The notes beneath the pieces are model-generated. The model was not told the DNA's origin. It was given only the letters and a program-made list of their open reading frames with translations, and did not search any database. DNA of 64,000 bases from Alphaproteobacteria bacterium. GTDB lineage: Bacteria; Pseudomonadota; Alphaproteobacteria; UBA828. The position numbers and the translations under genes are program-made. The stretch is from assembly GCA_963422645.2 (NCBI GenBank), contig CAXXVO010000007.1, positions 384,001-448,000 of the forward strand, in the 5' to 3' direction. This document shows positions 14,534-64,000 of this stretch, piece after piece (position 1 is the first letter of the stretch; each line of letters begins with the position of its first letter).

Positions 14534-15357
14534 CCGCGGTCGCTGCCATCGCCGGGCACGAGGTCCTGGCCGGCATCCGCAACCGGTGGATGCTCGCCGC
14601 CTCCCTGCTGCTCGGCGTGCTGGCGCTGACTTTGGCGTTCATCGGCAGCACGCCGGCCGGGCCGGTCGCCGCCTCGCCGCTCGCGATTACTGTGGTGAGC
14701 CTCTCGAGCCTTTCGGTCTTCCTGATCCCGCTCATCGGGCTTCTGGTGAGCTACGACACGCTCGTTGGCGAGATAGAGCGGGGCACGATGCCGCTGCTGA
14801 TGACCTACCCGGTCACCCGCTGGCGCATCGTGCTCGGCAAGTTCGCCGGCCAGGTGGCGATCCTCGCCGTCGCCACGGTGATCGGCTTCGGTGTGGCCGC
14901 ACTGATCACTGGCCTCGGCGATGGCGGCGATGCCGAGGCCTGGGGCGCCTTCGGGGTGATGGTCGGCGGCTCGATCCTGCTCGGTGCCGCCTTCATCGCG
15001 CTCGGCACGCTCTTCAGCGCCGTGGTGGCGGAGCGCGGCACGGCGGCCGGGGTCTCTGCGGCAGCGTGGCTGATCTTCGTCGTGCTCTTCGACATGGCGC
15101 TGCTCGCCATCCTCGTCGCGGACGAAGGGCAGGTGGTCTCGGGCGAGCTCTTCCGCGTGCTCCTGCTGCTCAACCCGACCGACGTCTACCGCATGCTGAC
15201 GCTCGCGGGCTCGGAGACCGTGGGCGCGCTCTCCGGCATGGCAGGCGTGAGCGCCGAGGCCGCCTTCGGTCACGCGATCCTCTTCCCGGTCATGGTGCTC
15301 TGGATCGCGGTGCCGCTCGGCCTCGCGGGCCTCCTGTTCGGGAGGAGGGAGCTGTGA
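14530..15357 (+). CDS. nosY: ABC permease NosY
   Basis: RNRW, GEIERGT..LL.TYP, LLNPTDVYR. Confidence 0.92.
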
Positions 15358-15902
15358 GACGCGCGCTTGCCCTGGTGGCGATCGGCCTGCTCGCGCTCTC
15401 GGGCGTCGCCGGTTGCGGCGAGGATGACGATGTCGTGGCGAAGCCGCCGCCCGTGGAGCCCACACGCGAGGCCTCCGGCCACTACTGCGGCATGATCCTG
15501 GTGGATCACAGCGGGCCCAAGGCGCAGGTTCACCTGCCCGGTGCGCCCGAGCCGGTGTGGTTCTCCTCGGTGCGCGATGCCATCGCCTTCACCATGCTGT
15601 CGGAGGAGCCGCGCAACTACAGCGCGATCTACGTCAACGACATGGGCGTGGCGCAGTGGGAGGCGCCCGAGCCCGGCACCTGGATCGATGCGGCGGGCGC
15701 CTCCTACGTGATCGGGAGCGACCGGATGGGTGGCATGGGCGTGCCCGAGGCGGTGCCCTTCGCCACGCGCGAAGCGGCCGAGCGTTTTGTGGCGGAGCAC
15801 GGCGGGCGCGTCGTCGCGCTCACGGACGTGCCGGAGAGCTACATCCTCGCCTACGCCGACGAGGACGACACCGCGGCGCCGGCGCAGGGAGAGACCGAAT
15901 GA
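15354..15902 (+). CDS. nosL: Copper-binding lipoprotein NosL
   Basis: GTG 15354, lipobox VAGC, HYCGM, HSGPKAQ, MGGMG.PEAVPF. Confidence 0.92.
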   Translation: MRRALALVAIGLLALSGVAGCGEDDDVVAKPPPVEPTREASGHYCGMILVDHSGPKAQVHLPGAPEPVWFSSVRDAIAFTMLSEEPRNYSAIYVNDMGVAQWEAPEPGTWIDAAGASYVIGSDRMGGMGVPEAVPFATREAAERFVAEHGGRVVALTDVPESYILAYADEDDTAAPAQGETE

Positions 15903-16897
15903 CCCGGTGGTCCGGTGCCGCGCCCACCCGGCGGCGCTTCGTCGCCATCGCGGCGGCCGCCGCCGGCCTGCCCTTCGCGGCGCTCCGGGCGGGTGCGGAG
16001 ACGACGCATCTGCACCGCTGGTCCGGCATTGCGCTGGGGGCCGCGGCCGAGATCGTCCTCTACGACCCCGACGCCGCTCGCGCGCGCCGGCTGATCGCGC
16101 GCTGCGTCCAAGAGATCGACCGGCTGGAGGACGTGTTCAGTCTCTACCGGCCCGAGAGCGCAATCCACCGGCTCAACCGGGACGGCAATCTCACGGCGCC
16201 GCCTCTCGAACTCGTCGTGCTGCTGGCCGAGGCCCGCTCGTTTTCGGAACGGACGGAGGGCGCCTTCGATGTCACCGTGCAGCCGCTTTGGCGCCTCTAT
16301 GCCGCGCACTTCGCGCATCCCGCCGCGGACCCGCGCGGGCCGGCAGAGGCCGAGCACGCCAGGGCACAAGCGCTGGTGGACTACCGCGCCGTCGAAATCG
16401 AGCCGGCGGCGATCCGATTTTCCCGGCCGAGGATGGCGATCACCCTCAACGGCATCGCCCAGGGCTACATCACCGACAGGGTCGCGACTCTGCTGCACGA
16501 CGCCGGCATGGGCGACGTTCTCCTCGACATCGGAGAAGTCCGGGCGCTCGGCCGCCATCCCGACGGGCGGCCATGGCATGTGGGCATCCGCCGCGCAGCC
16601 GAGCCCGAGACGGTCGCGCGCACCGTCACGCTGGTTGATCGCGCCGTTGCCACTTCGGCCGGCATTGCGAGCGTCTTCGAGCCGAGCGGGCGCCACCACC
16701 ACCTGTTCGACCCCGCGACCGGTAGGCCCGCGCAGGCGATAGGACAGGTCTCGGTGATCGCACCCCGCGCCACCATGGCCGACGCGCTCTCCACCGCGCT
16801 CGCCGTCTCCTCGCCTGAGCGCGCCGGCGCGTATACCGCCCGCTTTCCCGAAATCGAGGTGGTGACCGACGGTCCTCAACCTGCAGCGAGGAGGTAG
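15899..16897 (+). CDS. nosX: FAD:protein FMN transferase NosX (ApbE family)
   Basis: TRRRF Tat motif, FSLYR..S, FDVTVQPLW, LNGIAQGY.TD, HLFDP.TG, ADALST. Confidence 0.9.
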   Translation: MTRWSGAAPTRRRFVAIAAAAAGLPFAALRAGAETTHLHRWSGIALGAAAEIVLYDPDAARARRLIARCVQEIDRLEDVFSLYRPESAIHRLNRDGNLTAPPLELVVLLAEARSFSERTEGAFDVTVQPLWRLYAAHFAHPAADPRGPAEAEHARAQALVDYRAVEIEPAAIRFSRPRMAITLNGIAQGYITDRVATLLHDAGMGDVLLDIGEVRALGRHPDGRPWHVGIRRAAEPETVARTVTLVDRAVATSAGIASVFEPSGRHHHLFDPATGRPAQAIGQVSVIAPRATMADALSTALAVSSPERAGAYTARFPEIEVVTDGPQPAARR

Positions 16898-17640
16898 ACG
16901 CCGGCGGCGACCATCGCGACGCCGCCCGCGCGCGCGACCCACTCGCCCTTGGGCATGAGCTTCTCGGCGACGACGAAGACCGTGATCGCCGCCACCCAGG
17001 CGAGATTCATCACGCCTCCGACGAAGAGCAGCCCCATCACGAAGCCGCAGCAGCCGAGGCAGAAGGCGCCGTGGCCGAGCCCCATGCGGAAGGCGCCCGA
17101 CCGGCCCGGCCGCCAGTGCCCCATGATGAAGGCCATGGGCGAGCGGCAATGCTTGAGGCAGGCGTACTTGAGCGGCGTCCACTGATAGACGCCGGCGACG
17201 ATGAACAGCACGCCGCCGAGGATCGTGCTGGTGGCGACCATCATCGGCGAGAGCAGCGCCGCATTCTGCAGGCCCCACTGCATCGCCGTCGCGGCCACGC
17301 TGAATGCCGCCCAGACCAGGATATAGCCGAGCGCGAAGAGCGTGGTCGCGGTGTAAGCGCGGCCTGTGCCCCGCGAGCGGTCCGCGCGGGCGAAGATCAG
17401 GATCATCGGCGCCGCGCTCGGCACCATCATGGCCACCATCATCACCGCCCACATGGCCCACATCAGCAGGCCGTCGTACACGCTCCAGGCCTGCATCTGC
17501 AACATGGCGCCGTCCGCGTGCGCCATGTCGCCGCCCATGTCGAGGGCCATGTCGATGAGGTAGAGCCAGGCGAGCGCGGCGGCGAGCGCGAGGCCGACCA
17601 GGACCACCAGCCGGTCGCGTCGCGCGATCCCCTCGATCAC
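16876..17640 (-). CDS. DUF2182 predicted metal-binding membrane protein
   Basis: MWAVMMVAMM.PS..PM, YQWTPLK..CL.HCRSP, CLGCC, GGVMNL; start (GTG 17640) uncertain. Confidence 0.85.
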   Translation of the reverse strand: MIEGIARRDRLVVLVGLALAAALAWLYLIDMALDMGGDMAHADGAMLQMQAWSVYDGLLMWAMWAVMMVAMMVPSAAPMILIFARADRSRGTGRAYTATTLFALGYILVWAAFSVAATAMQWGLQNAALLSPMMVATSTILGGVLFIVAGVYQWTPLKYACLKHCRSPMAFIMGHWRPGRSGAFRMGLGHGAFCLGCCGFVMGLLFVGGVMNLAWVAAITVFVVAEKLMPKGEWVARAGGVAMVAAGVYLLAAG

Positions 17641-51491: not shown

Positions 51492-51983
51492 ATGGAAGAC
51501 AAGCTGATACGCCTCACGGTCAACGGCCGTGACGAGGCGGTGGTGATCCGGCCGTTGGCGACGCTGCAGGACGTGCTGCGGGACAATCTGGAGTTCAATG
51601 CAGTCAAGAGCGGCTGCGGCCAGGGCGGCTGCGGCAGCTGCTCGGTGCTGGTGGATGGGGAGCTTCACCTCTCCTGCCTGACACTCGCCGAGCGGGCGGA
51701 AGGGGCCGAGGTGACCACGCTCGAAGGTCTCAACGAGACCAACGCGATCGTGCCGCTGCAAGAGGCCTTCGTCGAGAACTACGCGGCGCAGTGCGGCTAC
51801 TGCACCGCCGGCATGGTCGTGGCGGCGAAGGCGCTGCTCGACCGCAACCCGACGCCAAGCCGCGACGAGATCGTGGAGGGGCTCTCGGGCAATCTCTGTC
51901 GCTGTACCGGGTTCGCGCCCATCGTCCGCGCGGTGCAGCAGGCCGCACAGGCGCTCTCGGATACCGAGGAGGAGGCGAGCTAA
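51492..51983 (+). CDS. Molybdenum hydroxylase [2Fe-2S] subunit (CoxS/XdhC-like)
   Basis: GCGQGGCGSC, SCL, QCGYCTAG, GNLCRCTG. Confidence 0.92.
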   Translation: MEDKLIRLTVNGRDEAVVIRPLATLQDVLRDNLEFNAVKSGCGQGGCGSCSVLVDGELHLSCLTLAERAEGAEVTTLEGLNETNAIVPLQEAFVENYAAQCGYCTAGMVVAAKALLDRNPTPSRDEIVEGLSGNLCRCTGFAPIVRAVQQAAQALSDTEEEAS

Positions 51984-53329
51984 TGTCGATGAAGGAACTC
52001 GGCGTCGTCGGCCGGAACGTCGGCCAGCGCGATCTCGAAAGCCACGCGCGCGGCCAGACCACCTATTACGAGGACGTCCATTACCCGCGCATGCTGCATC
52101 TCAAGATGCACCGGAGCGCGGAGCCCCACGCCCGCCTCGTGCGCGTAGACACCAGCGCGGCGGAGGCCAGTCCTGGCGTGGTCTGCGTCCTCACCCACGA
52201 AGACCTGCCCGGCAAGAAGGTGTGGAACGGCCTCGCCGCCGTCGGCGTTGGCCCTGAAGACGAGCCGATCCTCGCCTTCGACAAGGTGCGCTGGCGGGGC
52301 GAGCCGATCGTCGCCGTTTTGGGCGAGAGCGCCGAGGCCGCCCGCGTCGGCGCCGCCAAGGTGGAGGTCGAGTACGACCCGCTCCCCGGCGTGTTCGACG
52401 TGGAGGAAGCCATTTCCGGCGAGGCGCCGGTGCTGACCGCCCACTGGCCCAACAACCACTACATCTACCCCGACGACCACGCCGCCTCGCAGATCCGCTT
52501 TGGCGATGTCGATAAGGGCTTCGCCGAGGCCGACCACATCATCGAGGACCACTACCAGACCAGCCCCATCGAGCAGGCGCCGATGGAGACCAACGGCTGC
52601 ATCGCGAAGCCCGGCGGCGACGGGCGCATCACGGTGCACACCAACACGCAGGCCGTGCACTTCGCGCGCGACAACACCGCCGGCATCCTGGGGCTGGCGC
52701 CGGGCAAGCTGCGCTTCCTTGGCGGCACCGTGGGCGGCGGCTTCGGCGGCAAGGTGGACGTGGCGGTCGAGCCGATCTCGGTGCTGGCCGTCATGAGGAC
52801 CGGGCGGCCGGTCAAGTTCAAGTACACGCGGGAAGAGGAGATGCAGGTTTCCTCCACCCGATCCGCCTGGCGGCTTTTCATCAAGGATGGGGTGATGAAC
52901 GACGGGCGCATCGTCGCCCGCAAGATCACCTCCTATCAAGATTCCGGCGCCTACCTGCGCTTCAGCTCCTACGGCTCGATGAAGCACGCCGGCCACATGC
53001 CGGGGCCCTACACCATCCCCAACGTCTGGGTCGATGCGCGGGTGGTGTTCACCAACCGGCCGCCCTCGAGCGCGATGCGGGGCTTCGGCGTCATGGCCGC
53101 GTCCTTCGCCATCGAGTTGCAGATGGACAAGGTCGCCAAGACCATCGGCATGGACCCGTGGCAGCTCCGATTGCTCAACGCCTACCGCAACGGCGACATG
53201 CGGGCACACCGCAAGGTGAACGAGGACGCCGCGATGGTGGAGACCATCCAGGCAGCGGCCCGCCTTGCCGGCCAGGAGCTGCCGGCGGAGTACCAAGCGA
53301 TGACCTCCTGGGACAGAAAGGCAAGCTGA
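51983..53329 (+). CDS. Molybdenum hydroxylase molybdopterin subunit, N-terminal half (NdhL-like)
   Basis: DKVRWRGEP, QAPMETNG, GGGFGGK, DSGAY, GPYTIPN, SAMRGFG. Confidence 0.88.
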   Translation: MSMKELGVVGRNVGQRDLESHARGQTTYYEDVHYPRMLHLKMHRSAEPHARLVRVDTSAAEASPGVVCVLTHEDLPGKKVWNGLAAVGVGPEDEPILAFDKVRWRGEPIVAVLGESAEAARVGAAKVEVEYDPLPGVFDVEEAISGEAPVLTAHWPNNHYIYPDDHAASQIRFGDVDKGFAEADHIIEDHYQTSPIEQAPMETNGCIAKPGGDGRITVHTNTQAVHFARDNTAGILGLAPGKLRFLGGTVGGGFGGKVDVAVEPISVLAVMRTGRPVKFKYTREEEMQVSSTRSAWRLFIKDGVMNDGRIVARKITSYQDSGAYLRFSSYGSMKHAGHMPGPYTIPNVWVDARVVFTNRPPSSAMRGFGVMAASFAIELQMDKVAKTIGMDPWQLRLLNAYRNGDMRAHRKVNEDAAMVETIQAAARLAGQELPAEYQAMTSWDRKAS

Positions 53330-54372
53330 TGACCAAGCTAAGGGGCACCGGCTTCGCGGCCGTGAACTATCCGACCGGAATGCACCTCGGCGGCGATCCT
53401 ACCCAGTCGCTGATCCATATGACACCGGCGGGCGACATCGTCGTCACCATGGCGAGCGTCGATCTGGGGCAGGGGCTCAGGACCGTGCTCGCGCAAATCG
53501 CGGCGGAGACCCTGGGCGTCCCCTACGAGAGCATCGTGGTGGAGACCGCCGATACCGACACCGGCCCCCACTGCACCGGCACCTTCGCGAGCCGCACCAC
53601 GCATCGCGCCGGCAATGCGGTGGTGATGGCGGCGCAGGAGGCGCGCAAGGCGATGCTGGAGGTGGCGGGAGAGCTGCTGGAGGCGAGCCCGGACGATCTG
53701 GAGACCGACGGCGAGGGCAACATCCACATCAAGGGCGTGGCCGAGAAGTCGGTCTCGGTCGGCGAAGTCGCGGGCGCGGCTCACTTCGGCTACGGCAAGA
53801 CCATTGCCGGACGTGGCGCCTATCTCAAGCCGCCGAGCCCGATGGACCCGGAGACCGGAGAGTGCGACCCGGATTCGACCCAGGCCCACGCCTGCACGGT
53901 GGTCGAGGTCGAGGTCGATACCGAGACCGGGATGGTCGAGGTGCTCGACATGAAGAGCGTCTACGAGGTGGGCCAGCAGGTGAACCCCGACCTGGTGAAG
54001 GGCCAGATCGTCGGCGGCTCCTGGATGGGCATCGGCCACGCGCTCTACGAGACCACGGCGCCCGGCTACCCAGCTATCGACCCGGCGCCGGTCGATTTTC
54101 AGAACTACCTCCAACCCGGCGCGTCGGAGATGCCCGAGGTCACCTGCGAGGTGCTGGAGTATCCGGCGGAGAGCGGCCCCTACGGCGGCAAGGGCGTGGG
54201 CGAGATGGTGACGAATGGCCCGATCCCGGCCATCGTGAACGCCATCAACAACGCGCTCGACGTCCGCATCACCCAGATTCCGGTGACGCCCGAGGTCGTC
54301 CTCCGCGCCCTCGACGAGAAGAAGGCGCAAGTCGAAGGTTCAGACTTCCTGACCTCTGCTGATTTTAGGTGA
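53329..54372 (+). CDS. Molybdenum hydroxylase molybdopterin subunit, C-terminal half (NdhM-like); last residues supplied by the adjacent element
   Basis: DLGQG, GTFASRTT, EVEVD.ETG, GQIVGG, GPYGGKGVGE, PAIVNAI. Confidence 0.88.
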   Translation: MTKLRGTGFAAVNYPTGMHLGGDPTQSLIHMTPAGDIVVTMASVDLGQGLRTVLAQIAAETLGVPYESIVVETADTDTGPHCTGTFASRTTHRAGNAVVMAAQEARKAMLEVAGELLEASPDDLETDGEGNIHIKGVAEKSVSVGEVAGAAHFGYGKTIAGRGAYLKPPSPMDPETGECDPDSTQAHACTVVEVEVDTETGMVEVLDMKSVYEVGQQVNPDLVKGQIVGGSWMGIGHALYETTAPGYPAIDPAPVDFQNYLQPGASEMPEVTCEVLEYPAESGPYGGKGVGEMVTNGPIPAIVNAINNALDVRITQIPVTPEVVLRALDEKKAQVEGSDFLTSADFR

Positions 54373-56857
54373 CACGAGCCGCGCGGATTCCGAGGCCCCG
54401 TCGATGTCGTAGACTATGCGCAGACGGGTGCCGGGGAAGACCGTTTCGGTGGCGTTCAGGTCGCTCAGAACCGCATCGATCCAACGGTCGCAGGCGTCGT
54501 TTGCGAGGCCAAGAATGTGGACCCGCAGGAGGCCATTGCCAGGATCCGGCAGGATGTCGGCATCGGCGGTGAGCAGCGCTTGAAGCAGTTTCCGGGGATG
54601 GGGCTTGTGGCCCTGCGCCTGCATGACGGGAAGCATCATGCGGGTTTCGGCGCGGTAGGCGATCATCCGGATGACGTCGAGGAGGAGGCGCTCGCGCGCG
54701 GGCAAGGCATCGAGCTGCTCGGCTTCGTCGAGGTCGCCGGCCCGGCAGTGCTTGGGCGTCTCCCTGCGGCTGGCCCTGACGATGTCGCGGACATCCTGGA
54801 GGTCCCTGACTTCCCTCCTGAGTTCCGCCGTCGGCTGCTTCTTCCGGGCCGTGTCGGCGATGCGGTTGCGCAGGCGGCCAAGCTGGCGGTCGAGGCGATG
54901 GATTGCCTTGTCATAGGCCCGCCGCAGCGGGTTGACGACCATGGCGGCGGGATCGAGAGGCTCGAGCTCGTGGGTCGGCAGGGCGTCGAGATTGAACTCG
55001 TCACGCATGTACTTGAAGAAGTTCTCCTGCGACCAGCGCGAGAACATGGCGCCCGCAACCTCAGCCATCGGCTTGTGCGGATCGGTGGTGATCAGCGGCA
55101 CCTGACGGCCGTTGTCGAGCAGGCGGCGGATCTGGCGCACCCTGAAGCCGTTCGGCAACGTCACCGGCTTCTCAGCCAGCCGCATGGTGGCGCTGCCGTC
55201 CGCCGCCGGTCCGTGAATGGGAACGGTCATCGCGCCGAAGTCCTCGGCCGGCCAGTCCTCGCCCCTGAAGTTCTTGTGCCAGGTCAGGCAGGCGACGCCG
55301 CGCCTCGCCAGCCGGCGGAACAGATCCGGGCTCCAGCCCTCGCGGTCGAAGACCAGGGTGAGCGCCGGCTGGCCGGGATGCTCGGCGGTCAGGTCCGGCG
55401 CCCCGGCGCCAACGATCCCAAGCTCCTGCAGCGCCGGCACCACGTCGGCTTCGATGGCCGCGACCATCTTCGGGTCCAGCGGCTTGTGCAGACAGAGCAG
55501 CGGCTTGCCGCCCAGAGCGTTGATCCAGTAGCTGGCGCTCGCCGGCAGGCACAGCTTCTCGCGCGAGACGAAGTGCTTGGGCAAGCGCCCCTTGCGGCCG
55601 GAGTAGACCTTGACGTGCCCGTCGATGGCCAGCGTCGCCCAGAGCTCCGGCTCGTCGGCGCCTGCCAGCGCCTGGCAAGGGCGAGCTGCCACGCCCGCAC
55701 GCCGGCCTCGTCGTCGGCGATGAGAGCGATCTTGCGGCGCAGCGTCTTGACCTCGGGGCAGCGATCGAGGCCGAGAATGGCGCCCCATTCGCCCGGCGCC
55801 TGGTAGCGCAGGCTCTCGGGGTTGCGCACCCGCGCCAAGGTCATGAAGGCCAGGAAGAGCAGGATCGTAGGCAAGCCGTAATAGCCCTTCGGCAGCAATG
55901 GCAGGAGACCGGTCTCGGAGAGAAGACCTTCCTTCAGCAGGGCCGGCAGGGCGGCGAGCACGCCGCCGAAGCGGACACCGCGGGCGGCGGCGGCGAACTG
56001 CGGTTCGACCGGCCCCGCCTGTCCACAACTGGCCAGAACCCGAGCCGGAACATCGCAAGTCGCACGCCCCATCGGCGCCTGCCGGTCCCGCCGATCGCGC
56101 GCGCTGCGATCCGTTTGCGGCTGCGCTTCCAGCCCCGGCGCCGTCTCCGGCCCCGGGGCACCGGTACTCTCTTCATCGACACGGCCTTCAGGAGCCGCAC
56201 CCGCGTCAGGCGGCGCAGCCAGCGCTGAGCGTCCGGGCTCCCCATCCGCCTCCGTGTTGCCGATCAGTCCCTGACGGCGCCACTTGTTGACCGATGGCGC
56301 TGACACGCCGAGAACCCGGGCCGCCGCAGAGCCGCTCAGGCCCGATGCCAGCAACGCCGTCGCCTTCTCCGCCAACTCCGGAGTGAACACCGACGGCCCG
56401 CGACCGCGCCGGGGCTTCATGAACCCCGCTTCGCCCTCGGCCAGGTAGCGCCGTCGTGCGCGCTGCACCGTCGCGCGCGAGACAGCGAAAGCGTCAGCCA
56501 GTTCCTGCGGCGAGACCGCGCTGATCGCCGCGAGGCGGCCGATCCGCAAGAGCATGGCCGTGCGGTCATCGGCGGCGTGGCTGTCAAAGGGAATGAGGTT
56601 GGAAAAGTAGGTGAAGGTGTCGTCCGAGATCAGGACGGCGAAGCAGCTGTTGCCGATCGAGACCGCCTCTGGAGGGCACATTGGGAGGGTACTGGGCATG
56701 GTTGAGACCCCGTGCAATTGGTATCAAATTATACTATCAGACCTCGGGCGCGACACCCAGCGAAAAACCGCCTGAAACAACCGAAATGTATCAGAATTCA
56801 AGGAGTTCCCGGCACGCTGCCCAGAACAGCCAGCATCACGAGGTCAGGAAGTCTGAA
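54339..56857 (-). mobile_element. IS-like element with perfect 18-bp terminal inverted repeats
   Basis: TTCAGACTTCCTGACCTC (54339-54356) and GAGGTCAGGAAGTCTGAA (56840-56857). Confidence 0.85.
54340..56699 (-). pseudogene. Large putative transposase (HTH N-terminus, DDE-like core), frameshifted at ~55660
   Basis: Frame 1 MPSTLP...GEWGAILGLDRCPEVKTLRRK...RRWQ; frame 2 DEPELWATLAIDGHVKVY, FDREGWSP, RWSQENFFKYM...GQEV* with the stop inside the IR. Confidence 0.75.
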
Positions 56858-57166: not shown

Positions 57167-57270
57167 TCATCGCGTCAGCCTAGGCATTGCCGATATAGCG
57201 TTTGCCAGCTTTCCCCTCAGAAGATGACCGCCCTTGTACTCGACGACGAGAATGCGGCCATCTCTCTGCC
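57167..57270 (-). pseudogene. Possible remnant of a type III restriction (Res) subunit C-terminus
   Basis: DGRILVVEYKG, a PD-(D/E)xK-type motif; very short. Confidence 0.35.
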
Positions 57271-57321
57271 GTGCGCGGGATGGCGGGTGTCGGCATCCCG
57301 GTTGGGGTCTTCGGCCGGAAT

Positions 57322-57596
57322 CGGCGAGGTTCGAGGAACGAGGGGAAGTGGGAGCTCTTCCTGAGCTTCGGGATGCGAAGTTCGACGGTCCCCGCGCGGG
57401 TCTGCCGGTCCCGGTCGCGATAGCTGTCGCGCCGAGCCTGACGCAGCGGGTTCTTCTCGCCATAACCGGCGCCGGTAGCCGCGCCCACCTCCAGCTCCAT
57501 CAGCCGCTCGGCGGCAAACCCGATCATCTCTCGCAGCAGGTCCGCGTCCGGGGTCTTCTCCACGAACGTGCGCAGGCTCATCACATCTTCGGTCAC
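57322..57596 (-). pseudogene. IS256-family transposase N-terminal fragment
   Basis: EKTPDADLLREMIGFAAERLMELEV..TGA.YGE, TRAGTVELRIPKLRK.S.FP.FLEPRR. Confidence 0.85.
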
Positions 57597-58055: not shown

Positions 58056-58084
58056 TTGACCGACAATGTCGCTTATAACATGAT
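58056..58084 (+). promoter_or_regulatory. Putative sigma70 promoter with palindromic operator
   Basis: TTGACC (58056)-17 nt-CATGAT (58079); CGACA-A-TGTCG palindrome at 58061-58071; GGAGG RBS at 58095. Confidence 0.5.
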
Positions 58085-58107
58085 GGGCGAAATTGGAGGC
58101 AGTGGCG

Positions 58108-58323
58108 ATGAAGAATGTCGATTTTGCCTCGCTCGTGAGGCTCGTGCGCGAGACTCGGGGGCAAACACAGGAAGAGCTCGCTCATGAGCTTGATGTCACG
58201 GTTGGTACGATGAATGGCTGGGAGAATGGAAGGCACCGCCCTGTCAGAGCCCAGCGTCGCCGACTGATCGCACTAGCTGAAGGGATGGGGCTCGCCGTCC
58301 CTGAGGCGGATCGTGACTCCTAG
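58108..58323 (+). CDS. XRE/Cro-type HTH transcriptional regulator (controller-like)
   Basis: VRETRGQTQEELAHELDVTVGTMNGWENGRHRP. Confidence 0.88.
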   Translation: MKNVDFASLVRLVRETRGQTQEELAHELDVTVGTMNGWENGRHRPVRAQRRRLIALAEGMGLAVPEADRDS

Positions 58324-58388
58324 GCTAGGGGAGATGGGCCGGATGGTCGGGAGCGGGGTGTTGCTCTCAAAGACTGAGTCTTTCCAAA

Positions 58389-59768
58389 ATGGACGCGATT
58401 TCGCGGAGTGGGCCAGGGAGGCTGCCTGTGCGTCGCGATGATTCCCTAGTGGACATACATCTCCCCGTTGCGGAGGTCGCACCCACTTTCATCGATGTGT
58501 TTGCAGGGTGTGGTGGTCTCACACTCGGGCTCATGCGCGCCGGCTGGCGCGGGATTTTTGCCATAGAGAAGGATACCTTCGCGTTTGCCACGCTCGAAGC
58601 GAACTTCCTCCAGGCAACTGCACGTCATCAATTCGAATGGCCCGAATGGTTGCCGAAGAAGACCTGTGATATACGCGTGCTGCTTGAGACGCACGCTGAT
58701 GAACTAAGGAATCTGCGAGGTTCTGTAGATCTCTTGGCCGGAGGTCCACCGTGTCAAGGTTTTTCATCTGCTGGGCGCCGAAAGCCCCATGATCCCCGAA
58801 ACCAACTTTTCCGCGATTATGTCGCCCTCGTTGAACTCGTTCAGCCGCGACTGATCCTCCTCGAGAACGTAGAGGGTATCACATTCGCCTTCGGCGAGGA
58901 AGTAGTTCATGGAAGGATTACGAGACCAGGTTTGTGTGATAAACGCGAATCATACGCAGACTCTATTATAAGAACACTTGCGGCGAAGTATCACGTTTTC
59001 AGCTCAATTATCCGGTGCTCTGATTATGGAATTCCACAGAGCCGCCCAAGATTCATTCTTATAGGATACTCGAAAGAATGCTTCGATGAGGCAGATGTAG
59101 CCCAGCCGTTCGAACAAATCGAGTCGTGTCGTGCAGGTTTCCTTGCAGCGAGGGGATTAAAGTGTCGTACGACGGCAAAGCAAGCGCTTTCGGACTTGGC
59201 AATCAGACGAAATGGCCTCATAGATGGCGACGGGACGCCGCGCTTCAAGTCAATCGGTTATAGAGGACCGCTGTCTGCCTATCAAAAAGCAATGCGTGAT
59301 GGGTATACCGGAATACCGTCTGACACGCGCCTAGCGCGTCATCAACCGAACATTGTACGACGCTTTGCGCGCATCATTGCCGCAATGAAGAAGCGAAACC
59401 GGCTCGGCATCCAACTAAACGCAGAGCAACGGAAGGAATTCGGCGTGGCAAAGTCAACGCTGCGTGTGTTGAACCCGGAAGCTCCAGCACCAACGATCAC
59501 AAGTTTGCCCGACGACCTTCTTCACTATGAGGAACCTCGGACACTAACTGTCCGGGAGAATGCGCGTCTACAGACCTTCCCTGACTGGTTCGTGTTCAAG
59601 GGAAAGTACACGACGGGCGGCAACTTGCGCGCGCGCGAGGTGCCGAGATTTACGCAAGTGGCAAACGCTGTACCACCATTGCTAGCCGAGCTGTTAGGAA
59701 CGATACTCAGTAGAGCGATCACTCCGTGCAAGGATCGGGCCAAGGCGCAAAGAAGCGAGGCAGCGTAA
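58389..59768 (+). CDS. DNA (cytosine-5)-methyltransferase
   Basis: FAGCGG (I), GGPPCQGFS (IV), LENV (VI), YGIPQSRPR (VIII), RTLTVRENARLQTFPD (IX), QVANAVPP (X). Confidence 0.95.
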   Translation: MDAISRSGPGRLPVRRDDSLVDIHLPVAEVAPTFIDVFAGCGGLTLGLMRAGWRGIFAIEKDTFAFATLEANFLQATARHQFEWPEWLPKKTCDIRVLLETHADELRNLRGSVDLLAGGPPCQGFSSAGRRKPHDPRNQLFRDYVALVELVQPRLILLENVEGITFAFGEEVVHGRITRPGLCDKRESYADSIIRTLAAKYHVFSSIIRCSDYGIPQSRPRFILIGYSKECFDEADVAQPFEQIESCRAGFLAARGLKCRTTAKQALSDLAIRRNGLIDGDGTPRFKSIGYRGPLSAYQKAMRDGYTGIPSDTRLARHQPNIVRRFARIIAAMKKRNRLGIQLNAEQRKEFGVAKSTLRVLNPEAPAPTITSLPDDLLHYEEPRTLTVRENARLQTFPDWFVFKGKYTTGGNLRAREVPRFTQVANAVPPLLAELLGTILSRAITPCKDRAKAQRSEAA

Positions 59769-59769
59769 C

Positions 59770-62031
59770 GTGGCCTACTATACTAACCCGATAATAGATT
59801 ATTTGCTTCGGCACTCTTATGGACAGGGCGGTACGGTGGCGGTACCGACTCGGGAAGCTGCCACGCCTGTGGCATCATCGGTACGCGTGAAGGGCGGGTT
59901 ACCAGCAGGTGTTCAGGACGTGCTCAATCGGCTCGTTGACGTCTACGCGGCGTGGACACCGTCCGCGAATAGCGTGCCGCTAGAGTGGTGTTTCCTGGTC
60001 GGAGGTCCCGGAAACGGAAAGTCCGAGGCGTTGCGCGAGCTTGCAGGTGCCTTGCAGGTCGAGCTGCCACTGCGAGTTGGTGGTGAGCCCGCGCCGAGGA
60101 CCGTCCCCCAAAGTTGGCCAAGCCAAGGCGCATTCGTTGTTCCAGGGCTGGAGATCGCGTTCGTCAACGACGCATCGGTTCCGCGGCAGGATGCGTATGG
60201 TAATCGCCGCACCGGATCACTGTTTCTCGATCTCCGCGATGGGGTTCGCCAACTGCTCAGAGACGGCCCTGCGGTCGTGATGTTCGCTAATGTAAACCGC
60301 GGGATCCTCGTCGAAGAGCGTAGGGCTCTTGATAATCCAAGGACAGAGGAGCCGCCAACAGCGGCGGCGGCCGCAATCATTCAATGGCTCGCAGATCCGC
60401 GCTCACATCAGGGTGGCTCGCGCATTGGAGTGCAGGTGACCGTTCCTGTAACCTCGACCTCCCCATACTACGGGCAGCTAACGGTCAAACTGACGGATCA
60501 TGGAGCTCCGCACGACATTGTCGTGCACGCGGTTTTTCTCGACACGCTCTCACTGCTTGAACCAACTCCCGGGCGTGATAGTCGTGAATCAATAGATTTC
60601 TCTACGCTCCCCCCGAAGTCCGCGCACTACGAGCCACTTGGCGGCCTGGCCGAAGGCCCGTTGTCGAGATCGTGTACAATCGCAGGTGACGTAACAGGCC
60701 AAGTCGCGGACAAGGCGCACTGGGAAGTCGGAGGGTGTCGCGCCGAGGGAACCGCGTCAATTTGTGAAGCGCACGCGTCCTGTCCGTTCGCGCAGAACGC
60801 TCGCTGGCTCCATGATCGGCAGCTACGCGAGCGGTTTCTCGATACACTCAGGGCAGCGGAACTGGCCGGTGGGCGCCGATTGACGTACCGAGACCTGCTC
60901 GGGCACCTCGGACTGGCTGTTATTGGTACACCGGAGCGTAGTTGGCTCACGGACGAGCACCCTTGTCGATGGGTTGAGCGCACGGTTCGCGAGGCGCGCG
61001 ACGGGAATGCACAGAGCTTGGCGGAACTCGCGAGCCACCGAATCTACGCGAACCTTTTCCCCGTCACGGACACTGCTGCCTGGCCAAGAAGAAGGGCACT
61101 GGCAGAGCCGCGCGCATATCGCGTGGTCGCGTCGACTATGCGGGCCGTTCATGACGCACCTCGTGTACGAGCATTTGAGCAAGCATTTAACTTAATTGAT
61201 CCGGCACGAGACACGGATTCATGGGGTGGATTGCGAGCGACGATCTTGGACATGGTGGAAGCCATGAATGTGTCGCCACCTGCTTCGGAAATCAGGACCA
61301 TCGATGGTTGGAACGATGAAGCGAGCTGTGAAATCGAACGGCAACTCGATGCGGTGGTTGCAGGAGAGATAATGGGAGAGTTCGGGCGCGGCCGCGAAGC
61401 ATTGGCGCGCGCGCAGCTGCTCCGTAAATGGCGAGCAGTGTTGCTACTGCGTCAGGCTGGCCTCGCCCTTGGATGGCTGCCCTACAAGGGCGTCATACAG
61501 AGCTGGCTGGCCGAGCATCAAGCGGCGTTGGGAAAGAGGGCACCTGGCGCGCTCCGTCGCGGTCTAAATTTCCTTGTCTTTCCCGGAGGGGACGAGCTGA
61601 ATCTTGCACCGTTTCGCCCCCGCACCATGGAGCTTGGCAGCGTCTTGCCTTCGAGCTGTGTGGTGGTTTCGCTTCTTGAGCGAGACATTCGACTTGAAAT
61701 TGTAGCCGACGGCGACACGCTGTCAGCAGAACTGCGATTGACGACTGCCCAAGGGGGTGCTGCAGAAGTGGTTACCCGGCTCCCGATCGATCTGCGGGTA
61801 GCTCGCGAGGCACTGCTCAACGTCGACGGCCCGTCCGGGTCATTCACGGAGATCGGTGAGGCAGCATTTGCGCGAATTGAACGGGCGCGTGCTGTGCTTG
61901 TCAGCGAGCGCTATTTAGCTAGCGCGAGACTGCTGTTCTCAGACACTGCGGGGCAGGAGTGGGAGATCACGCCTCAGACGATGGGTTCGTCTGAGTTTCG
62001 AATCCGACGAGATATCGGCGGATTGCGATGA
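59770..62031 (+). CDS. P-loop ATPase, DptF/DndF-like
   Basis: GGPGNGKS Walker A, FVNDAS, ANVNRGIL, C..CPF.QN Cys cluster, TYRDLL; motif order recalls DptF (homology inferred). Confidence 0.6.
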   Translation: MAYYTNPIIDYLLRHSYGQGGTVAVPTREAATPVASSVRVKGGLPAGVQDVLNRLVDVYAAWTPSANSVPLEWCFLVGGPGNGKSEALRELAGALQVELPLRVGGEPAPRTVPQSWPSQGAFVVPGLEIAFVNDASVPRQDAYGNRRTGSLFLDLRDGVRQLLRDGPAVVMFANVNRGILVEERRALDNPRTEEPPTAAAAAIIQWLADPRSHQGGSRIGVQVTVPVTSTSPYYGQLTVKLTDHGAPHDIVVHAVFLDTLSLLEPTPGRDSRESIDFSTLPPKSAHYEPLGGLAEGPLSRSCTIAGDVTGQVADKAHWEVGGCRAEGTASICEAHASCPFAQNARWLHDRQLRERFLDTLRAAELAGGRRLTYRDLLGHLGLAVIGTPERSWLTDEHPCRWVERTVREARDGNAQSLAELASHRIYANLFPVTDTAAWPRRRALAEPRAYRVVASTMRAVHDAPRVRAFEQAFNLIDPARDTDSWGGLRATILDMVEAMNVSPPASEIRTIDGWNDEASCEIERQLDAVVAGEIMGEFGRGREALARAQLLRKWRAVLLLRQAGLALGWLPYKGVIQSWLAEHQAALGKRAPGALRRGLNFLVFPGGDELNLAPFRPRTMELGSVLPSSCVVVSLLERDIRLEIVADGDTLSAELRLTTAQGGAAEVVTRLPIDLRVAREALLNVDGPSGSFTEIGEAAFARIERARAVLVSERYLASARLLFSDTAGQEWEITPQTMGSSEFRIRRDIGGLR

Positions 62032-63569
62032 CAGGAAGTTGGCTAGTAAACTGCCTGCTCCCATTGCCGCGGCCAGAATATGCAAAGCAGACCGAAGCGC
62101 TGCTGACAGACCTGCTCTGGCGGTCTCGTGGCTCAAGCCTCGGTGGAAATACCGGGAACGGGGGATACTTCGAGGACCTTGCACGTATTAGGCACGGGAC
62201 GAAATCCCAGGACAAGCGCAGGCTCGTAGCGCGAAAGACGCAGGGGGGCTCCCCAAAGACATTGGAGACCTACCCTATTGCGCTAGAGACTTCGTTGGGC
62301 GAGTTGATTGATGGAGTGCCGCCCAGCCTAAACCCAATATCCGTAATTCTTGAATCCATTCTGGCGCCGCGGGCAAGGGGTGACAAGTCGCTCGCGTGCG
62401 CACCGATCACGCCTGATGTTGTGACCCTACAAACTCTACACGGCATGGTAAACAAGGACAGTCCGGCAAATCAGGCGCGCGCAATCGAGGCGGTCGGGTG
62501 GCTGGGAGGCTCGCCGGGAGAGGGCTACGTTGCTTCGGTCTTTCTGATCTCTCTCGTTGCTGAGCATTCCGGCGGCGCCTTGCACCGATTGATAACCGAT
62601 GCGCTCCGAACCATGGCTCAACATGTCTGGAGCGAGCTCGGCACAGGAGTTGAAGACTGGCGTGCCTGGCCGGCGGTGGGTCCTGTCGCGCTAGGGGATA
62701 GCCGGCCTCACGTGTTGGCCTCAGCTCGTTTTACCCCATTCAGATGGTTCTGGACTAAGTGGGCCACTCTTTGCGACCCCACGAGTGAATGGCGGGAGGC
62801 GCTTCCGGCCCGGCGTTTTACCGACTGGTCGCTCTGCCTGCTCCGGACCGCTCTGGCTTTCGCGTATCTTTGGGAAGCCGAGTTCTTCCGCCTCCTTCAT
62901 AGAGCTATCGTCGAAACGCGAGACGAGACGAGCCAAGCGGAGACTTCAGTCCTTGCGGTCACAAGTTTCATACAAAATGGAGAACGCCTAGCATCAATCG
63001 AACCCGTCGAAGTGCCTCCGTCCGAAAAGAATTCGTGGCCGGCACTGGAAGCTCTCTTGATGCAAGGCTACATGGCGCGAGAGGCAATTGAGAACGTGCT
63101 TGAGGAGCACCCGCTCCATCTCGATCTTTCGAACATTGAACCATGCAACTTAACCAATAGCATCGCCACTTGGATTACGGACTTTTCTCGTCTTGGTGGC
63201 AGAGCCCTGGAAGCGCGCTTGGAACCCGAGAGTAACACAGCGAAAAACACCCGAGAGTTCGTCCGATATCTGCTGGTCCCCAGGGTCTCAGACGATGACA
63301 CCGCAGATCAGGCGGACTTCTATTATCTCGCGCGCAGTAACCAGAAAAATTCTTGGTTTGAGCCAGGCCCGGAATGGCTGGCCGTCGTTTGTAGCCTTCT
63401 TTCGGGCCGGCCACGCGGACACTGCACTCTCGGCGAACTAGTGGATGATCTGGCGTCTCTCGGCATCCGCAATGAGCGGTCTGTCCTGGTAAATATGCTG
63501 GAAGAGGCGGGGCTGAGTACGGATAGTCCCGACGCCGACAACGCGCTTGTCATTCGATCGGCATTCTAG
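62028..63569 (+). CDS. Hypothetical protein, DptG/DndG-like
   Basis: ATGA overlap with the upstream ATPase; C-terminal winged-helix-like end TLGELVDDLASLGI...LEEAGLSTDSPDADNALVI. Confidence 0.5.
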   Translation: MTGSWLVNCLLPLPRPEYAKQTEALLTDLLWRSRGSSLGGNTGNGGYFEDLARIRHGTKSQDKRRLVARKTQGGSPKTLETYPIALETSLGELIDGVPPSLNPISVILESILAPRARGDKSLACAPITPDVVTLQTLHGMVNKDSPANQARAIEAVGWLGGSPGEGYVASVFLISLVAEHSGGALHRLITDALRTMAQHVWSELGTGVEDWRAWPAVGPVALGDSRPHVLASARFTPFRWFWTKWATLCDPTSEWREALPARRFTDWSLCLLRTALAFAYLWEAEFFRLLHRAIVETRDETSQAETSVLAVTSFIQNGERLASIEPVEVPPSEKNSWPALEALLMQGYMAREAIENVLEEHPLHLDLSNIEPCNLTNSIATWITDFSRLGGRALEARLEPESNTAKNTREFVRYLLVPRVSDDDTADQADFYYLARSNQKNSWFEPGPEWLAVVCSLLSGRPRGHCTLGELVDDLASLGIRNERSVLVNMLEEAGLSTDSPDADNALVIRSAF

Positions 63570-63586
63570 GATGGGGTTCCGCGAGA

Positions 63587-64000
63587 ATGAGATCGAATAG
63601 CATGGGATTCCTTGGACGAGCGATCGCAGCGCATCTTTCGAACCTCAAGGGACTGTACTCGGTTGAGCTACCGCTTTCCTTAGAGAAAGAGATGCTCGAC
63701 CTTGTTGCCGCGTGCAATTCGGTTGAGAGTACGCGGGCAGTCTTGGTCGGCGAGCGCGCGAACCTACCGGGCAATATCGTGCAAGTAAGTTGGCCCGACC
63801 TGCTCGGATGGCGGACGGCTGATGATCGAGTGTTCGTCTGGAGGCGGGGCGAGCGCGACCCGGATACGTCGTTCCGAGACGTAGTGCGTCCATTCATATC
63901 TGCTCGGTTTCCGGGAACTGGTGGAGGGGAATGCTCTAGCGACTTGCTCGCGAACCTCTGTGTAGACGAGCTGTGGCGGAGTCTCTCGCTTCCACTTGGC
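63587..64000 (+). CDS. Hypothetical protein, N-terminus only (predicted DptH-like partner)
   Basis: Frame from ATG 63587 (MRSNSMGFLGRAIAAHL...VDELWRSLSLPLG) is open to the window end; absent from the ORF track because it has no stop. Confidence 0.55.
   Translation, partial: MRSNSMGFLGRAIAAHLSNLKGLYSVELPLSLEKEMLDLVAACNSVESTRAVLVGERANLPGNIVQVSWPDLLGWRTADDRVFVWRRGERDPDTSFRDVVRPFISARFPGTGGGECSSDLLANLCVDELWRSLSLPLG

Follow-up and report, generated by a model that had tools for sequence, protein, structure and literature searches.

A cytosine methyltransferase-linked FGH-type cassette as a candidate 5-methylcytosine-marked defence unit

We describe a gene cassette that begins near the end of a 64,000-nucleotide stretch of an Alphaproteobacteria bacterium genome (the window; contig positions 384001-448000 of a 5.9-Mb assembly, 99.58% complete) and continues beyond it on the contig. 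The cassette encodes a small XRE-type regulator, a C5 cytosine DNA methyltransferase (MTase), three proteins that we call F, G and H, and a repair enzyme for T:G mismatches. By analogy with the DndFGH, SspFGH and MADS systems, we consider it likely that the cassette is a self-contained and horizontally mobile defence unit of the FGH type, which would resemble restriction-modification (RM) systems and be marked by 5-methylcytosine (5mC). An initial annotation, made from the DNA letters alone, had already proposed an FGH-type effector guarded by cytosine methylation, and this proposal is supported by homology, fold and gene linkage, from which we infer the function. What is new here is an unnamed 5mC-linked variant of the FGH-type module.

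Layout of the cassette

ORF calling over the 64,000-nt window placed all open reading frames (ORFs) of the cassette in the window on the + strand. It reproduced all coordinates of the co-oriented operon that the initial annotation had read as an XRE regulator, a C5 MTase, a 753-aa protein, a 513-aa protein and an ORF running off the window. This last ORF, starting at 63587, had been suspected to encode a very large HerA/FtsK ATPase with or without a nuclease; followed on the contig, it encodes 1969 aa with a C-terminal HerA/FtsK domain and a conserved nuclease motif. The initial annotation had missed the T:G repair gene at the 3' end of the cassette. The features, with positions past the window given as window equivalents, are:

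58056..58084 (+), promoter-like site TTGACC-17-CATGAT, a consensus match directly 5' of the XRE start
58093..58323 (+), XRE-type helix-turn-helix (HTH) regulator, 76 aa (Pfam HTH_31 2.3e-9, HTH_3 4.7e-6)
58389..59768 (+), C5 cytosine DNA methyltransferase, 459 aa (PF00145 8e-48)
59770..62031 (+), F, 753 aa, GTG start, putative DndF/SspF-type derived P-loop kinase with a Cys-rich lid insert (motifs, hhalign)
62028..63569 (+), G, 513 aa, DndG-fold multi-winged-helix protein and predicted DNA binder (AlphaFold2 model against 7exx)
63587..69496 (+), H, 1969 aa, ATG start, leaving the window (contig ORF, L002:6588-12497)
69450-70193, directly after H on the contig, MutY/Mig-like HhH-GPD glycosylase, 247 aa

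The gap between the MTase and F genes is 1 nt, F and G overlap by 4 nt (ATGA), and G and H are 17 nt apart. A terminator-like hairpin lies 12 nt past the glycosylase stop, and promoter-like sites numbered 2 in 800 nt against 0.2 expected from shuffles; hairpin and promoter-like sites are matches to consensus alone.

F resembles the P-loop proteins of FGH modules

F had no match in Pfam or NCBIfam and is labelled a hypothetical protein in RefSeq. Its homologues formed 144 clusters at E <= 1e-3; among the 120 clusters listed, the sole name given by any source was 'hypothetical protein', and none of these 120 had a precomputed Pfam domain. In an alignment of 37 F sequences (A1), the invariant positions comprised a Walker A motif, GGPGNGKS, at residues 78-85, which bears out the P-loop assigned to this protein in the initial annotation, together with N133-D134 and N174/N176, the latter at the place of the Walker B aspartate. 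Cys323, Cys332, Cys338 and Cys399 were invariant or nearly so. The hallmarks described for DndF are a canonical Walker A motif, an ND pair at the end of strand 2, an Asn in the Walker B motif, and a lid that is large and in some cases bears a Zn-chelating insert (Rakesh, Aravind and Krishnan, PMC10853773). By its motifs F appears to fit this description of a DndF-type derived P-loop kinase.

For comparison at the profile level we used ten reference loci: DndFGH (L103, L104), Ssp (L105-L109) and MADS (L110-L112). PADLOC verified L103 and L104 as DndFGH, L105, L107 and L109 as SspBCD-SspFGH, and L110 and L111 as MADS; L106 and L108 were taken as Ssp by their SspF match and layout, and L112 as MADS by its layout. 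In the reference loci that were scanned, PADLOC detected SspB, SspC and SspD or mad2 and mad5, as expected, and the verified DndF, DndG and DndH proteins scored 1e-139 to 0 on their PADLOC models.

When an F-family hidden Markov model (HMM) built from 69 sequences was searched against all ORFs of these loci, its top ten matches were the F proteins of all 10/10 loci (E 3.5e-12 to 0.012), the next match standing at 0.26. Alignment of profiles with hhalign gave 98.2% (E 3e-14) for F against SspF and 97.1% (E 4.8e-11) for F against the C-terminus of mad6, while cross-controls (F against G, and F or G against H) reached at most 1.4%. The match to DptF was weak (30.7%, E 5e-4), yet about as weak as that between SspF and DptF themselves (53.9%, E 1.3e-4). 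The earlier suggestion that the two proteins encoded after the MTase resemble DptF and DptG was supported at the level of the Dnd/Ssp family: F is close to SspF, and G to DndG in structure (Z 14.7; see below), while the link of F to DptF itself is weak. PADLOC gave F a weak SspF match only (E 7e-4, residues 330-393, about 60 residues), and such weak matches recurred in 5/18 relatives of F. The PADLOC mad6 and DndF models and the curated DptF model (TIGR03238) matched neither F nor these 18 relatives. Sequence searches of the PDB with F, G, H and the F profile gave nothing meaningful, the best hit being shikimate kinase at E 0.32, aligned on the P-loop.

Some longer F proteins (800-819 aa) carry an extra N-terminal domain (L021:2637-5054, L041:9419-11875, L032:9578-11977), which PADLOC recognised as PDC-S36 in L021 (3e-34) and L041 (1e-27) and as an HNH nuclease in L032 (1.5e-8). 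These additions fit the 'back-up effector' fusions described for DndF. As a separate observation, the PADLOC model PDLC03556 ('REase_II, Type II restriction enzyme') matched verified DndF proteins over their full length (L103:10003-11616, 4e-111; L104:9919-11508, 7e-101) and appears to be the DndF family under a restriction-enzyme label.

G is predicted to share the fold of DndG

G, which RefSeq also labels hypothetical, had no match in Pfam, PADLOC or NCBIfam, and none of 18 relatives matched any PADLOC model. An AlphaFold2 model computed from 49 sequences had a mean predicted local distance difference test score (pLDDT) of 88.1 and a predicted template modelling score (pTM) of 0.92. With this model, the top Foldseek hit was the crystal structure of DndG (7exx) at probability 0.99, followed by the next hit at 0.09. 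VIA-align superposed model and crystal structure with Z 14.7 and a root-mean-square deviation of 5.5 A over 347/440 aligned residues at 10% identity; SspB followed at Z 4.9 and 4.8, and all others were at or below 4.3. SspB is itself named as a relative of DndG (PMC10853773). The model thus predicts that G has the multi-winged-helix fold of DndG.

H is predicted to combine a nuclease with a C-terminal motor

H matched PADLOC mad8 (5.4e-15) and, at its C-terminus (residues 1588-1904), DUF87 (3.5e-4). In an alignment of 30 of the 58 family sequences, this H included, residues P1258, D1260, D1279, E1300, K1302, Q1327, K1617 and R1822 were conserved in at least 90% of the 30. Conservation thus extends to a D..ExK nuclease signature and to a Walker A motif. 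A model of residues 800-1969 (pLDDT 76.1) placed D1279 and E1300-x-K1302 on consecutive beta strands after a helix, which we read as a PD-(D/E)xK nuclease core. The C-terminal domain aligned by VIA-align with HerA (4d2i, Z 26.6) and with the C-domain of DndH (7es4, Z 26.1, 312 residues aligned). Using hhalign, H matched DptH at 99.5% over the HerA domain and MADS mad8 at 99.8% (E 3.2e-29) over 711 columns that include the nuclease region. On the sequence conservation and the model, H is predicted to be a nuclease followed by a C-terminal HerA/FtsK ATPase. A conserved N6-methylase motif was absent: [DNS]PP[YFWH] occurred in 7/58 H proteins, at scattered positions. Foldseek and VIA-align searches with the 1170-residue H model returned HerA-type matches only, which filled the lists, and the PADLOC DndH models matched only the HerA region, in 7/10 relatives tested, this H being unmatched.

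The conserved nuclease bears on whether methylation is used here in the classical way. In principle the cassette could act through a BREX-like block of replication, or through a type IV-like attack on modified foreign DNA, in which case the MTase would serve regulation or another role. In keeping with this, a table in a 2026 review lists the restriction mechanisms of MADS and BREX as unknown (PMC12904381), and H has a large uncharacterised N-terminal region. We hold such non-classical use to be decidedly improbable: at least 90% of the 30 members share the PD-(D/E)xK residues of H, and cleavage is therefore under selection, while an MTase that comes first in an operon with a nuclease is the classical protective order. 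As to the type IV variant, an enzyme co-encoded with the MTase that makes its substrate would be self-destructive.

The motor of H is not the same in all members. When the last 550 aa of each H were tested, 14/21 C-termini had, in place of HerA/FtsK, an AAA+ domain (PF00004, 1e-11 to 1e-14) followed by a RuvB_C winged helix (PF05491, down to 4e-15), and the other 7/21 gave HerA/DUF87/TrwB-type matches. The RuvB-like motors were found in L018, L020, L022, L025, L026, L027, L033, L042, L043, L050, L056, L057, L064 and L065. Between clades, the nuclease scaffold of H has exchanged one hexameric DNA translocase for another. DndH is described as having captured different HerA/FtsK domains repeatedly, with a RuvB-like replacement not described in the sections of that paper covered here (PMC10853773). 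The exchange of HerA/FtsK for RuvB-like AAA+ motors on one scaffold bears on the role of the translocase in FGH-type systems.

The FGH modules form one superfamily

Profile comparisons also joined the established systems to one another. With hhalign, SspF matched mad6 at 99.6%, SspG mad7 at 98.0%, SspH mad8 at 98.3%, DptF mad6 at 96.4% and DptH mad8 at 90.1%; moreover, verified DndG scored 5.9e-35 on the PADLOC mad7 model, and mad6-type proteins were matched by the SspF model. These bridges, together with the matches of F, G and H, indicate that Dnd, Ssp, MADS mad6-8 and the FGH genes of the cassette belong to one superfamily, to whose established members F and H are linked by profile-level homology and G by similarity of fold. 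Within it, the F, G and H of the cassette stand apart as a lineage of their own, which current models miss.

The FGH genes are bracketed by a cytosine methyltransferase and a mismatch-repair gene

The MTase was confirmed as complete, as the initial annotation had stated, by the presence of catalytic motifs I (FxGxG), IV (PCQ), VI (ENV), VIII (QxRxR) and X. With this full motif set and a PF00145 match above the cut-off, it classifies as a Dcm-type C5 DNA methyltransferase, in agreement with its matches to PADLOC MTase_II (1.7e-77) and TIGR00675 (2.6e-36), and we take it as the predicted writer of the self mark. It also matched the DruM and DrmMII models of Druantia and DISARM; no other component of these systems was present, so that they were rejected and the matches taken as generic C5 similarity. 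The gene closing the cassette matched a MutY model (7.5e-42) and a PADLOC 'Type II nicking endonuclease' model (PDLC03398, 2.6e-32). Vsr and Mig-type glycosylases accompany 5mC MTases.

Using two peptide patterns from F alone, we retrieved 77 distinct loci from about 185,000 species-representative genomes, spread over many bacterial phyla and including three archaeal contigs. Of these loci, 68 had an F of at least 600 aa, 62 had G and 57 had an H of at least 1600 aa, and the F-G-H layout with all three complete was seen in 57/77; missing genes are mostly due to contig ends or broken frames. A homologue of the C5 MTase (27-77% identical by tblastn, mostly 42-56%) lay within 1 kb of the FGH genes in 71/77 loci, with reading frames often overlapping or nearly abutting theirs. 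Its positions were:

directly upstream, same strand: 60 loci
upstream, opposite strand: 1 locus
immediately 3' of H or of the repair gene: 10 loci
none found: 6 loci

The pairing with a C5 MTase proposed in the initial annotation was thus borne out, and a linkage of 71/77 puts the arrangement far beyond chance. Among the loci in which no MTase was found, L017, L031, L037 and L058 are contigs of 2.9-5.7 kb and L030 ends just after F, which leaves L041 (see below) as the one full exception.

The repair gene is less uniform. A homologue of the MutY-like glycosylase was found in 26/77 loci. The ORF after H was readable in 61 loci, and it was a glycosylase in 22, Vsr in 13, an MTase in 7 and something else or unassigned in 19, one of which (L009) carries the glycosylase in a different frame. 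The Vsr genes (PF03852, 1e-27 to 1e-33) came to light as 13/30 of the unlabelled ORFs after H that were scanned. The FGH genes thus stand between genes for a 5mC writer and for either of two unrelated T:G-mismatch repair enzymes. Such bracketing is hard to explain otherwise, and it therefore argues that 5mC is really made and that the unit is selected as a whole.

This arrangement sets the family apart from its relatives, as 0/10 of the Dnd, Ssp and MADS reference loci had a homologue of the MTase or the glycosylase. The absence of dnd and ssp modification genes noted earlier for the window held downstream and elsewhere in the genome: profile searches for DndC, DndD, DptF, SspB and SspC found none of them in this 99.6%-complete assembly. 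The lone SspD-model match, on another contig, was a generic one of 36.5 bits, where true SspD scores about 300-360 bits; the same model also gave matches in 6/14 control genomes.

In the clade of L040 and L044 the gene order may differ, with a Vsr domain (1.3e-22) at L040:7863-8048 on the 5' side of an unusually long MTase ORF of 647 aa, and an MTase ORF of 662 aa in L044, which suggests that vsr is upstream of or fused to the MTase there, instead of following H.

A proposed mechanism and its alternatives

In the mechanism that we propose, the C5 MTase would mark host DNA with 5mC at its target motif, and F, G and H would jointly, as in DndFGH, scan DNA and nick or cleave unmarked phage or plasmid DNA. 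The MutY/Mig-like glycosylase, or Vsr in other members, would repair the T:G mismatches that arise from deamination of 5mC, and the small XRE protein would probably time expression on entry into a new host, as type II controller proteins do. By analogy with the known modules, 5mC would be the self mark read by FGH, F, G and H would form a complex, and phage or plasmid restriction would be its outcome. Both SspFGH and DndFGH are toxic or damaging to unmodified host DNA without their modification genes (PMC8092258).

Several points weigh against this reading. Sequence similarity between G and its proposed counterparts was undetected by hhalign (0.7% for DndG, 4.7% for SspG, 36% for mad7), and an HMM search was also negative, so that the link between G and DndG depends on the structure of a single predicted model. 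About 1100 N-terminal residues of H had no confident match to DndH, with weak collinear hhalign hits of at most 10%; in DndH this part holds a series of an inactive SWI2/SNF2 C-domain, an HTH, two beta-sandwiches, target recognition domains and an inactive DAM domain. A repair gene was not found in every locus, and 19/61 of the ORFs after H were something else. One locus, L041, has complete F, G and H and lacks a C5 MTase in the 9.4 kb upstream and the 3 kb downstream of them. We infer methylation, restriction and the formation of a complex from sequence, models and analogy. Finally, it has been argued that DndFGH works by itself as a sensor-effector, with no modification module dedicated to it (PMC10853773).

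If that argument were extended to the cassette, FGH would be triggered by phage nucleotides or proteins, and the C5 MTase with Vsr or the glycosylase would be a separate travelling module of the Dcm-Vsr type, whose role could be, for example, to blunt other restriction systems or to persist as a selfish pair. This would agree with the count of DndFGH in 1798 taxa and of all eight dnd genes in only 316 (PMC10853773), with L041, and with the effector-like N-terminal domains of some F proteins (PDC-S36 in L021 and L041, HNH in L032). Speaking against it, the MTase lies within 1 kb in 71/77 loci across many phyla and archaea, often in overlapping or nearly abutting frames, and MTase and repair gene stand at opposite ends of FGH, unlike an independent dcm-vsr pair; Dnd, Ssp and MADS loci each bear their own modification genes instead. 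We therefore regard a standalone FGH as unlikely here. The cassette family may perhaps be among the 'standalone' DndFGH cases of that study (PMC10853773). As a side observation, L041 is an Actinomycetes contig of 21.8 kb from a metagenome-assembled genome, with an MvaI/BcnI-family endonuclease about 2 kb downstream at the contig end.

More tentatively, the 5mC-marked cassette may be a fourth lineage of the FGH superfamily that reads 5mC as its self mark, has its own deamination-repair gene and has had the motor of H exchanged. If this were true, FGH modules would in general read the absence of a mark and would have been newly paired with four or more chemistries, namely double-strand phosphorothioate (PT), single-strand PT, N6-methyladenine (6mA) and 5mC, and many 'standalone' DndFGH loci might have an unrecognised modification partner adjoining them. 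The cassette touches on the question of how DndFGH-type machines separate self from non-self, and a lineage that is almost always joined to a C5 MTase and a deamination-repair gene argues that mark-reading is the rule. A 5mC-linked lineage would also be a more tractable model, in that 5mC is open to mapping across whole genomes and to being written in vitro.

Relation to known systems

The cassette shares with DndFGH, a PT-dependent restriction module, the gene order F-G-H, the P-loop motifs of F, the predicted fold of G (Z 14.7) and the predicted nuclease and HerA/FtsK domain of H. Its proteins measure 753/513/1969 aa, compared with 530-538/433-434/1689-1712 aa in the two verified DndFGH loci, F and H being about 200-250 aa longer. 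In contrast to those loci, it has no dndABCDE and carries a C5 MTase and a T:G repair gene in their place, and the curated DptF and the PADLOC DndF and DndG models did not match. As neither dnd genes nor matches to the curated F and G models were present, DndFGH proper was rejected. In the main text of PMC10853773, cytosine methylases are tied only to CxC-ABC/DndE modification cores and not to DndFGH.

With SspFGH, which depends on single-strand PT, the cassette has the three-gene architecture in common, and SspF is the closest relative of F among the PT-linked modules (98.2%). It differs in having no SspB, SspC or true SspD and no matches to SspG or SspH models; in hhalign comparisons its G was marginal (4.7%) and its H gave three collinear segments of at most 20%. 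Without sspBCD, membership in this system was rejected as well.

MADS (methylation-associated defence system, mad1-mad8) is likewise an FGH-type module guarded by DNA methylation, with mad6, mad7 and mad8 as F, G and H, and H of the cassette is closest to mad8 (30-33% identity, 1e-53 to 1e-54). Unlike the cassette, MADS modifies DNA with mad2, a Type I-like MTase for N6-adenine whose specificity subunit is mad5 (PMC13662399), and it also has the OLD-like pair of mad3 and mad4 and an F of about 1380 aa that is fused to a kinase. The cassette has a single C5 MTase and a T:G repair gene; a specificity subunit, mad3/4 and a kinase domain were not found. MADS uses 6mA, and mad2-4 and mad6-8 are required for resistance (10.1101/2023.03.30.534895, PMC13662399); its detection model makes mad6, mad7 and mad8 mandatory (10.1101/2023.03.30.534895). 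In the operon mad8 alone matched, at the C-terminus of H, with no match to mad2-7, and the MTase is of the C5 type, so that MADS membership was rejected too. The MADS preprint does not contain the words 'Dnd', 'DndF' or 'DndH' (10.1101/2023.03.30.534895), while DndF variants with NERD and kinase fusions that resemble mad6 have been described (PMC10853773).

The cassette also resembles type II RM systems in which a C5 MTase has a Vsr- or Mig-type partner, having a C5 MTase, a small HTH controller and a T:G repair gene. It differs from them in lacking a compact type II endonuclease, since its restriction side would be a three-protein, ATP-dependent FGH assembly of about 3200 residues.

The models of PADLOC 2.0, Pfam and NCBIfam name no such system, and a full-text search of open-access papers and preprints returned no description of a cassette of C5 MTase, FGH and Vsr or glycosylase. 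The claim of a new system in the initial annotation thus holds as far as a name goes. The principle of a methylation-guarded FGH effector is not new, because MADS already embodies it with 6mA. As a candidate defence system, the cassette had escaped the models of PADLOC 2.0, Pfam and NCBIfam that were tried.

The regulator is a variable accessory

The two loci closest to this one, L004 and L005, each carry a gene homologous to that of the XRE protein. A small regulator stood upstream of the MTase in 10/51 loci with candidate small ORFs at that place, and these regulators were of four unrelated types (XRE, Cro/C1 HTH_26, HTH_17 and CopG ribbon-helix-helix). The XRE protein is probably a controller similar to the C proteins, and it is a variable accessory, not a core component. 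Two loci from marine Alphaproteobacteria have a PhdYeFM-type antitoxin gene directly 5' of the MTase (L074:7568-7747, L077:762-941), which is probably part of a neighbouring toxin-antitoxin pair.

Distribution and mobility

The cassette is rare. In a phylum sample of 400 genomes, the narrow A1 profile, which misses distant members, found 1 clear and 2 marginal further genomes. Most of the 77 loci are on chromosomal contigs of up to several Mb. Among 72,556 plasmid records, tblastn with this F found none and tblastn with the F of L055 found 4. One member, L113, is on the conjugative MOBQ/MPF_T plasmid pSfreGR64a of Sinorhizobium fredii GR64, where the RefSeq labels of its genes are, in order, DNA cytosine methyltransferase, hypothetical protein, hypothetical protein, ATP-binding protein and DNA mismatch endonuclease Vsr.

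These settings raise the alternative that the cassette mainly serves mobile elements as a module for addiction or stabilisation, acting by post-segregational killing rather than against phage. The location of our cassette in a low-GC island flanked by remnants of insertion sequences (IS), the member on a conjugative rhizobial plasmid and the loci that adjoin ArdC or DUF932 genes of conjugative elements all point in this direction. Since addiction is a known side effect of RM systems and compatible with defence, and since the loci are mostly chromosomal, with 0 (this F) and 4/72,556 (L055 F) plasmid records, we think it very improbable that addiction is the main role. In two loci, a gene of conjugative elements directly follows H, encoding either an ArdC anti-restriction protein/metallopeptidase or DUF932 (L067:18360-19253, - strand; L044:19405-20361, + strand).

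Genomic setting

From about position 56500 of the window to about window-equivalent 72000, the GC fraction dips to 0.50-0.62, compared with 0.68-0.72 around it. No tRNA genes were found near the cassette. Two transposase genes lie on its upstream side:

57180..57596 (-), truncated IS256-type (Mutator family) transposase fragment (PF00872 2.4e-14, profile positions 10-98 of 379)
54340..56717 (-), Transposase_29 IS transposase in two overlapping frames (PF21804)

The IS256-type fragment forms the upstream edge of the low-GC island, and the Transposase_29 gene flanks the island. Downstream of the cassette, three ORFs of 228, 361 and 458 aa (L002:13388-14074, - strand; 14921-16006, + strand; 16040-17416, - strand; window-equivalent about 70387-74415) had no match in Pfam, PADLOC or NCBIfam; the first two are inside the low-GC stretch. 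In the Transposase_29 gene, a 442-aa ORF covers positions 10-134 of the PF21804 profile and a 572-aa ORF positions 136-560, so that it is either a frameshifted copy or a gene with programmed frameshifting. Just 5' of this IS, a molybdopterin-binding gene of the xanthine/aldehyde dehydrogenase type (51791-54372, + strand) is split into MoCoBD_1 (51791-53329) and MoCoBD_2 (53158-54372), which may reflect a frameshift or an assembly error.

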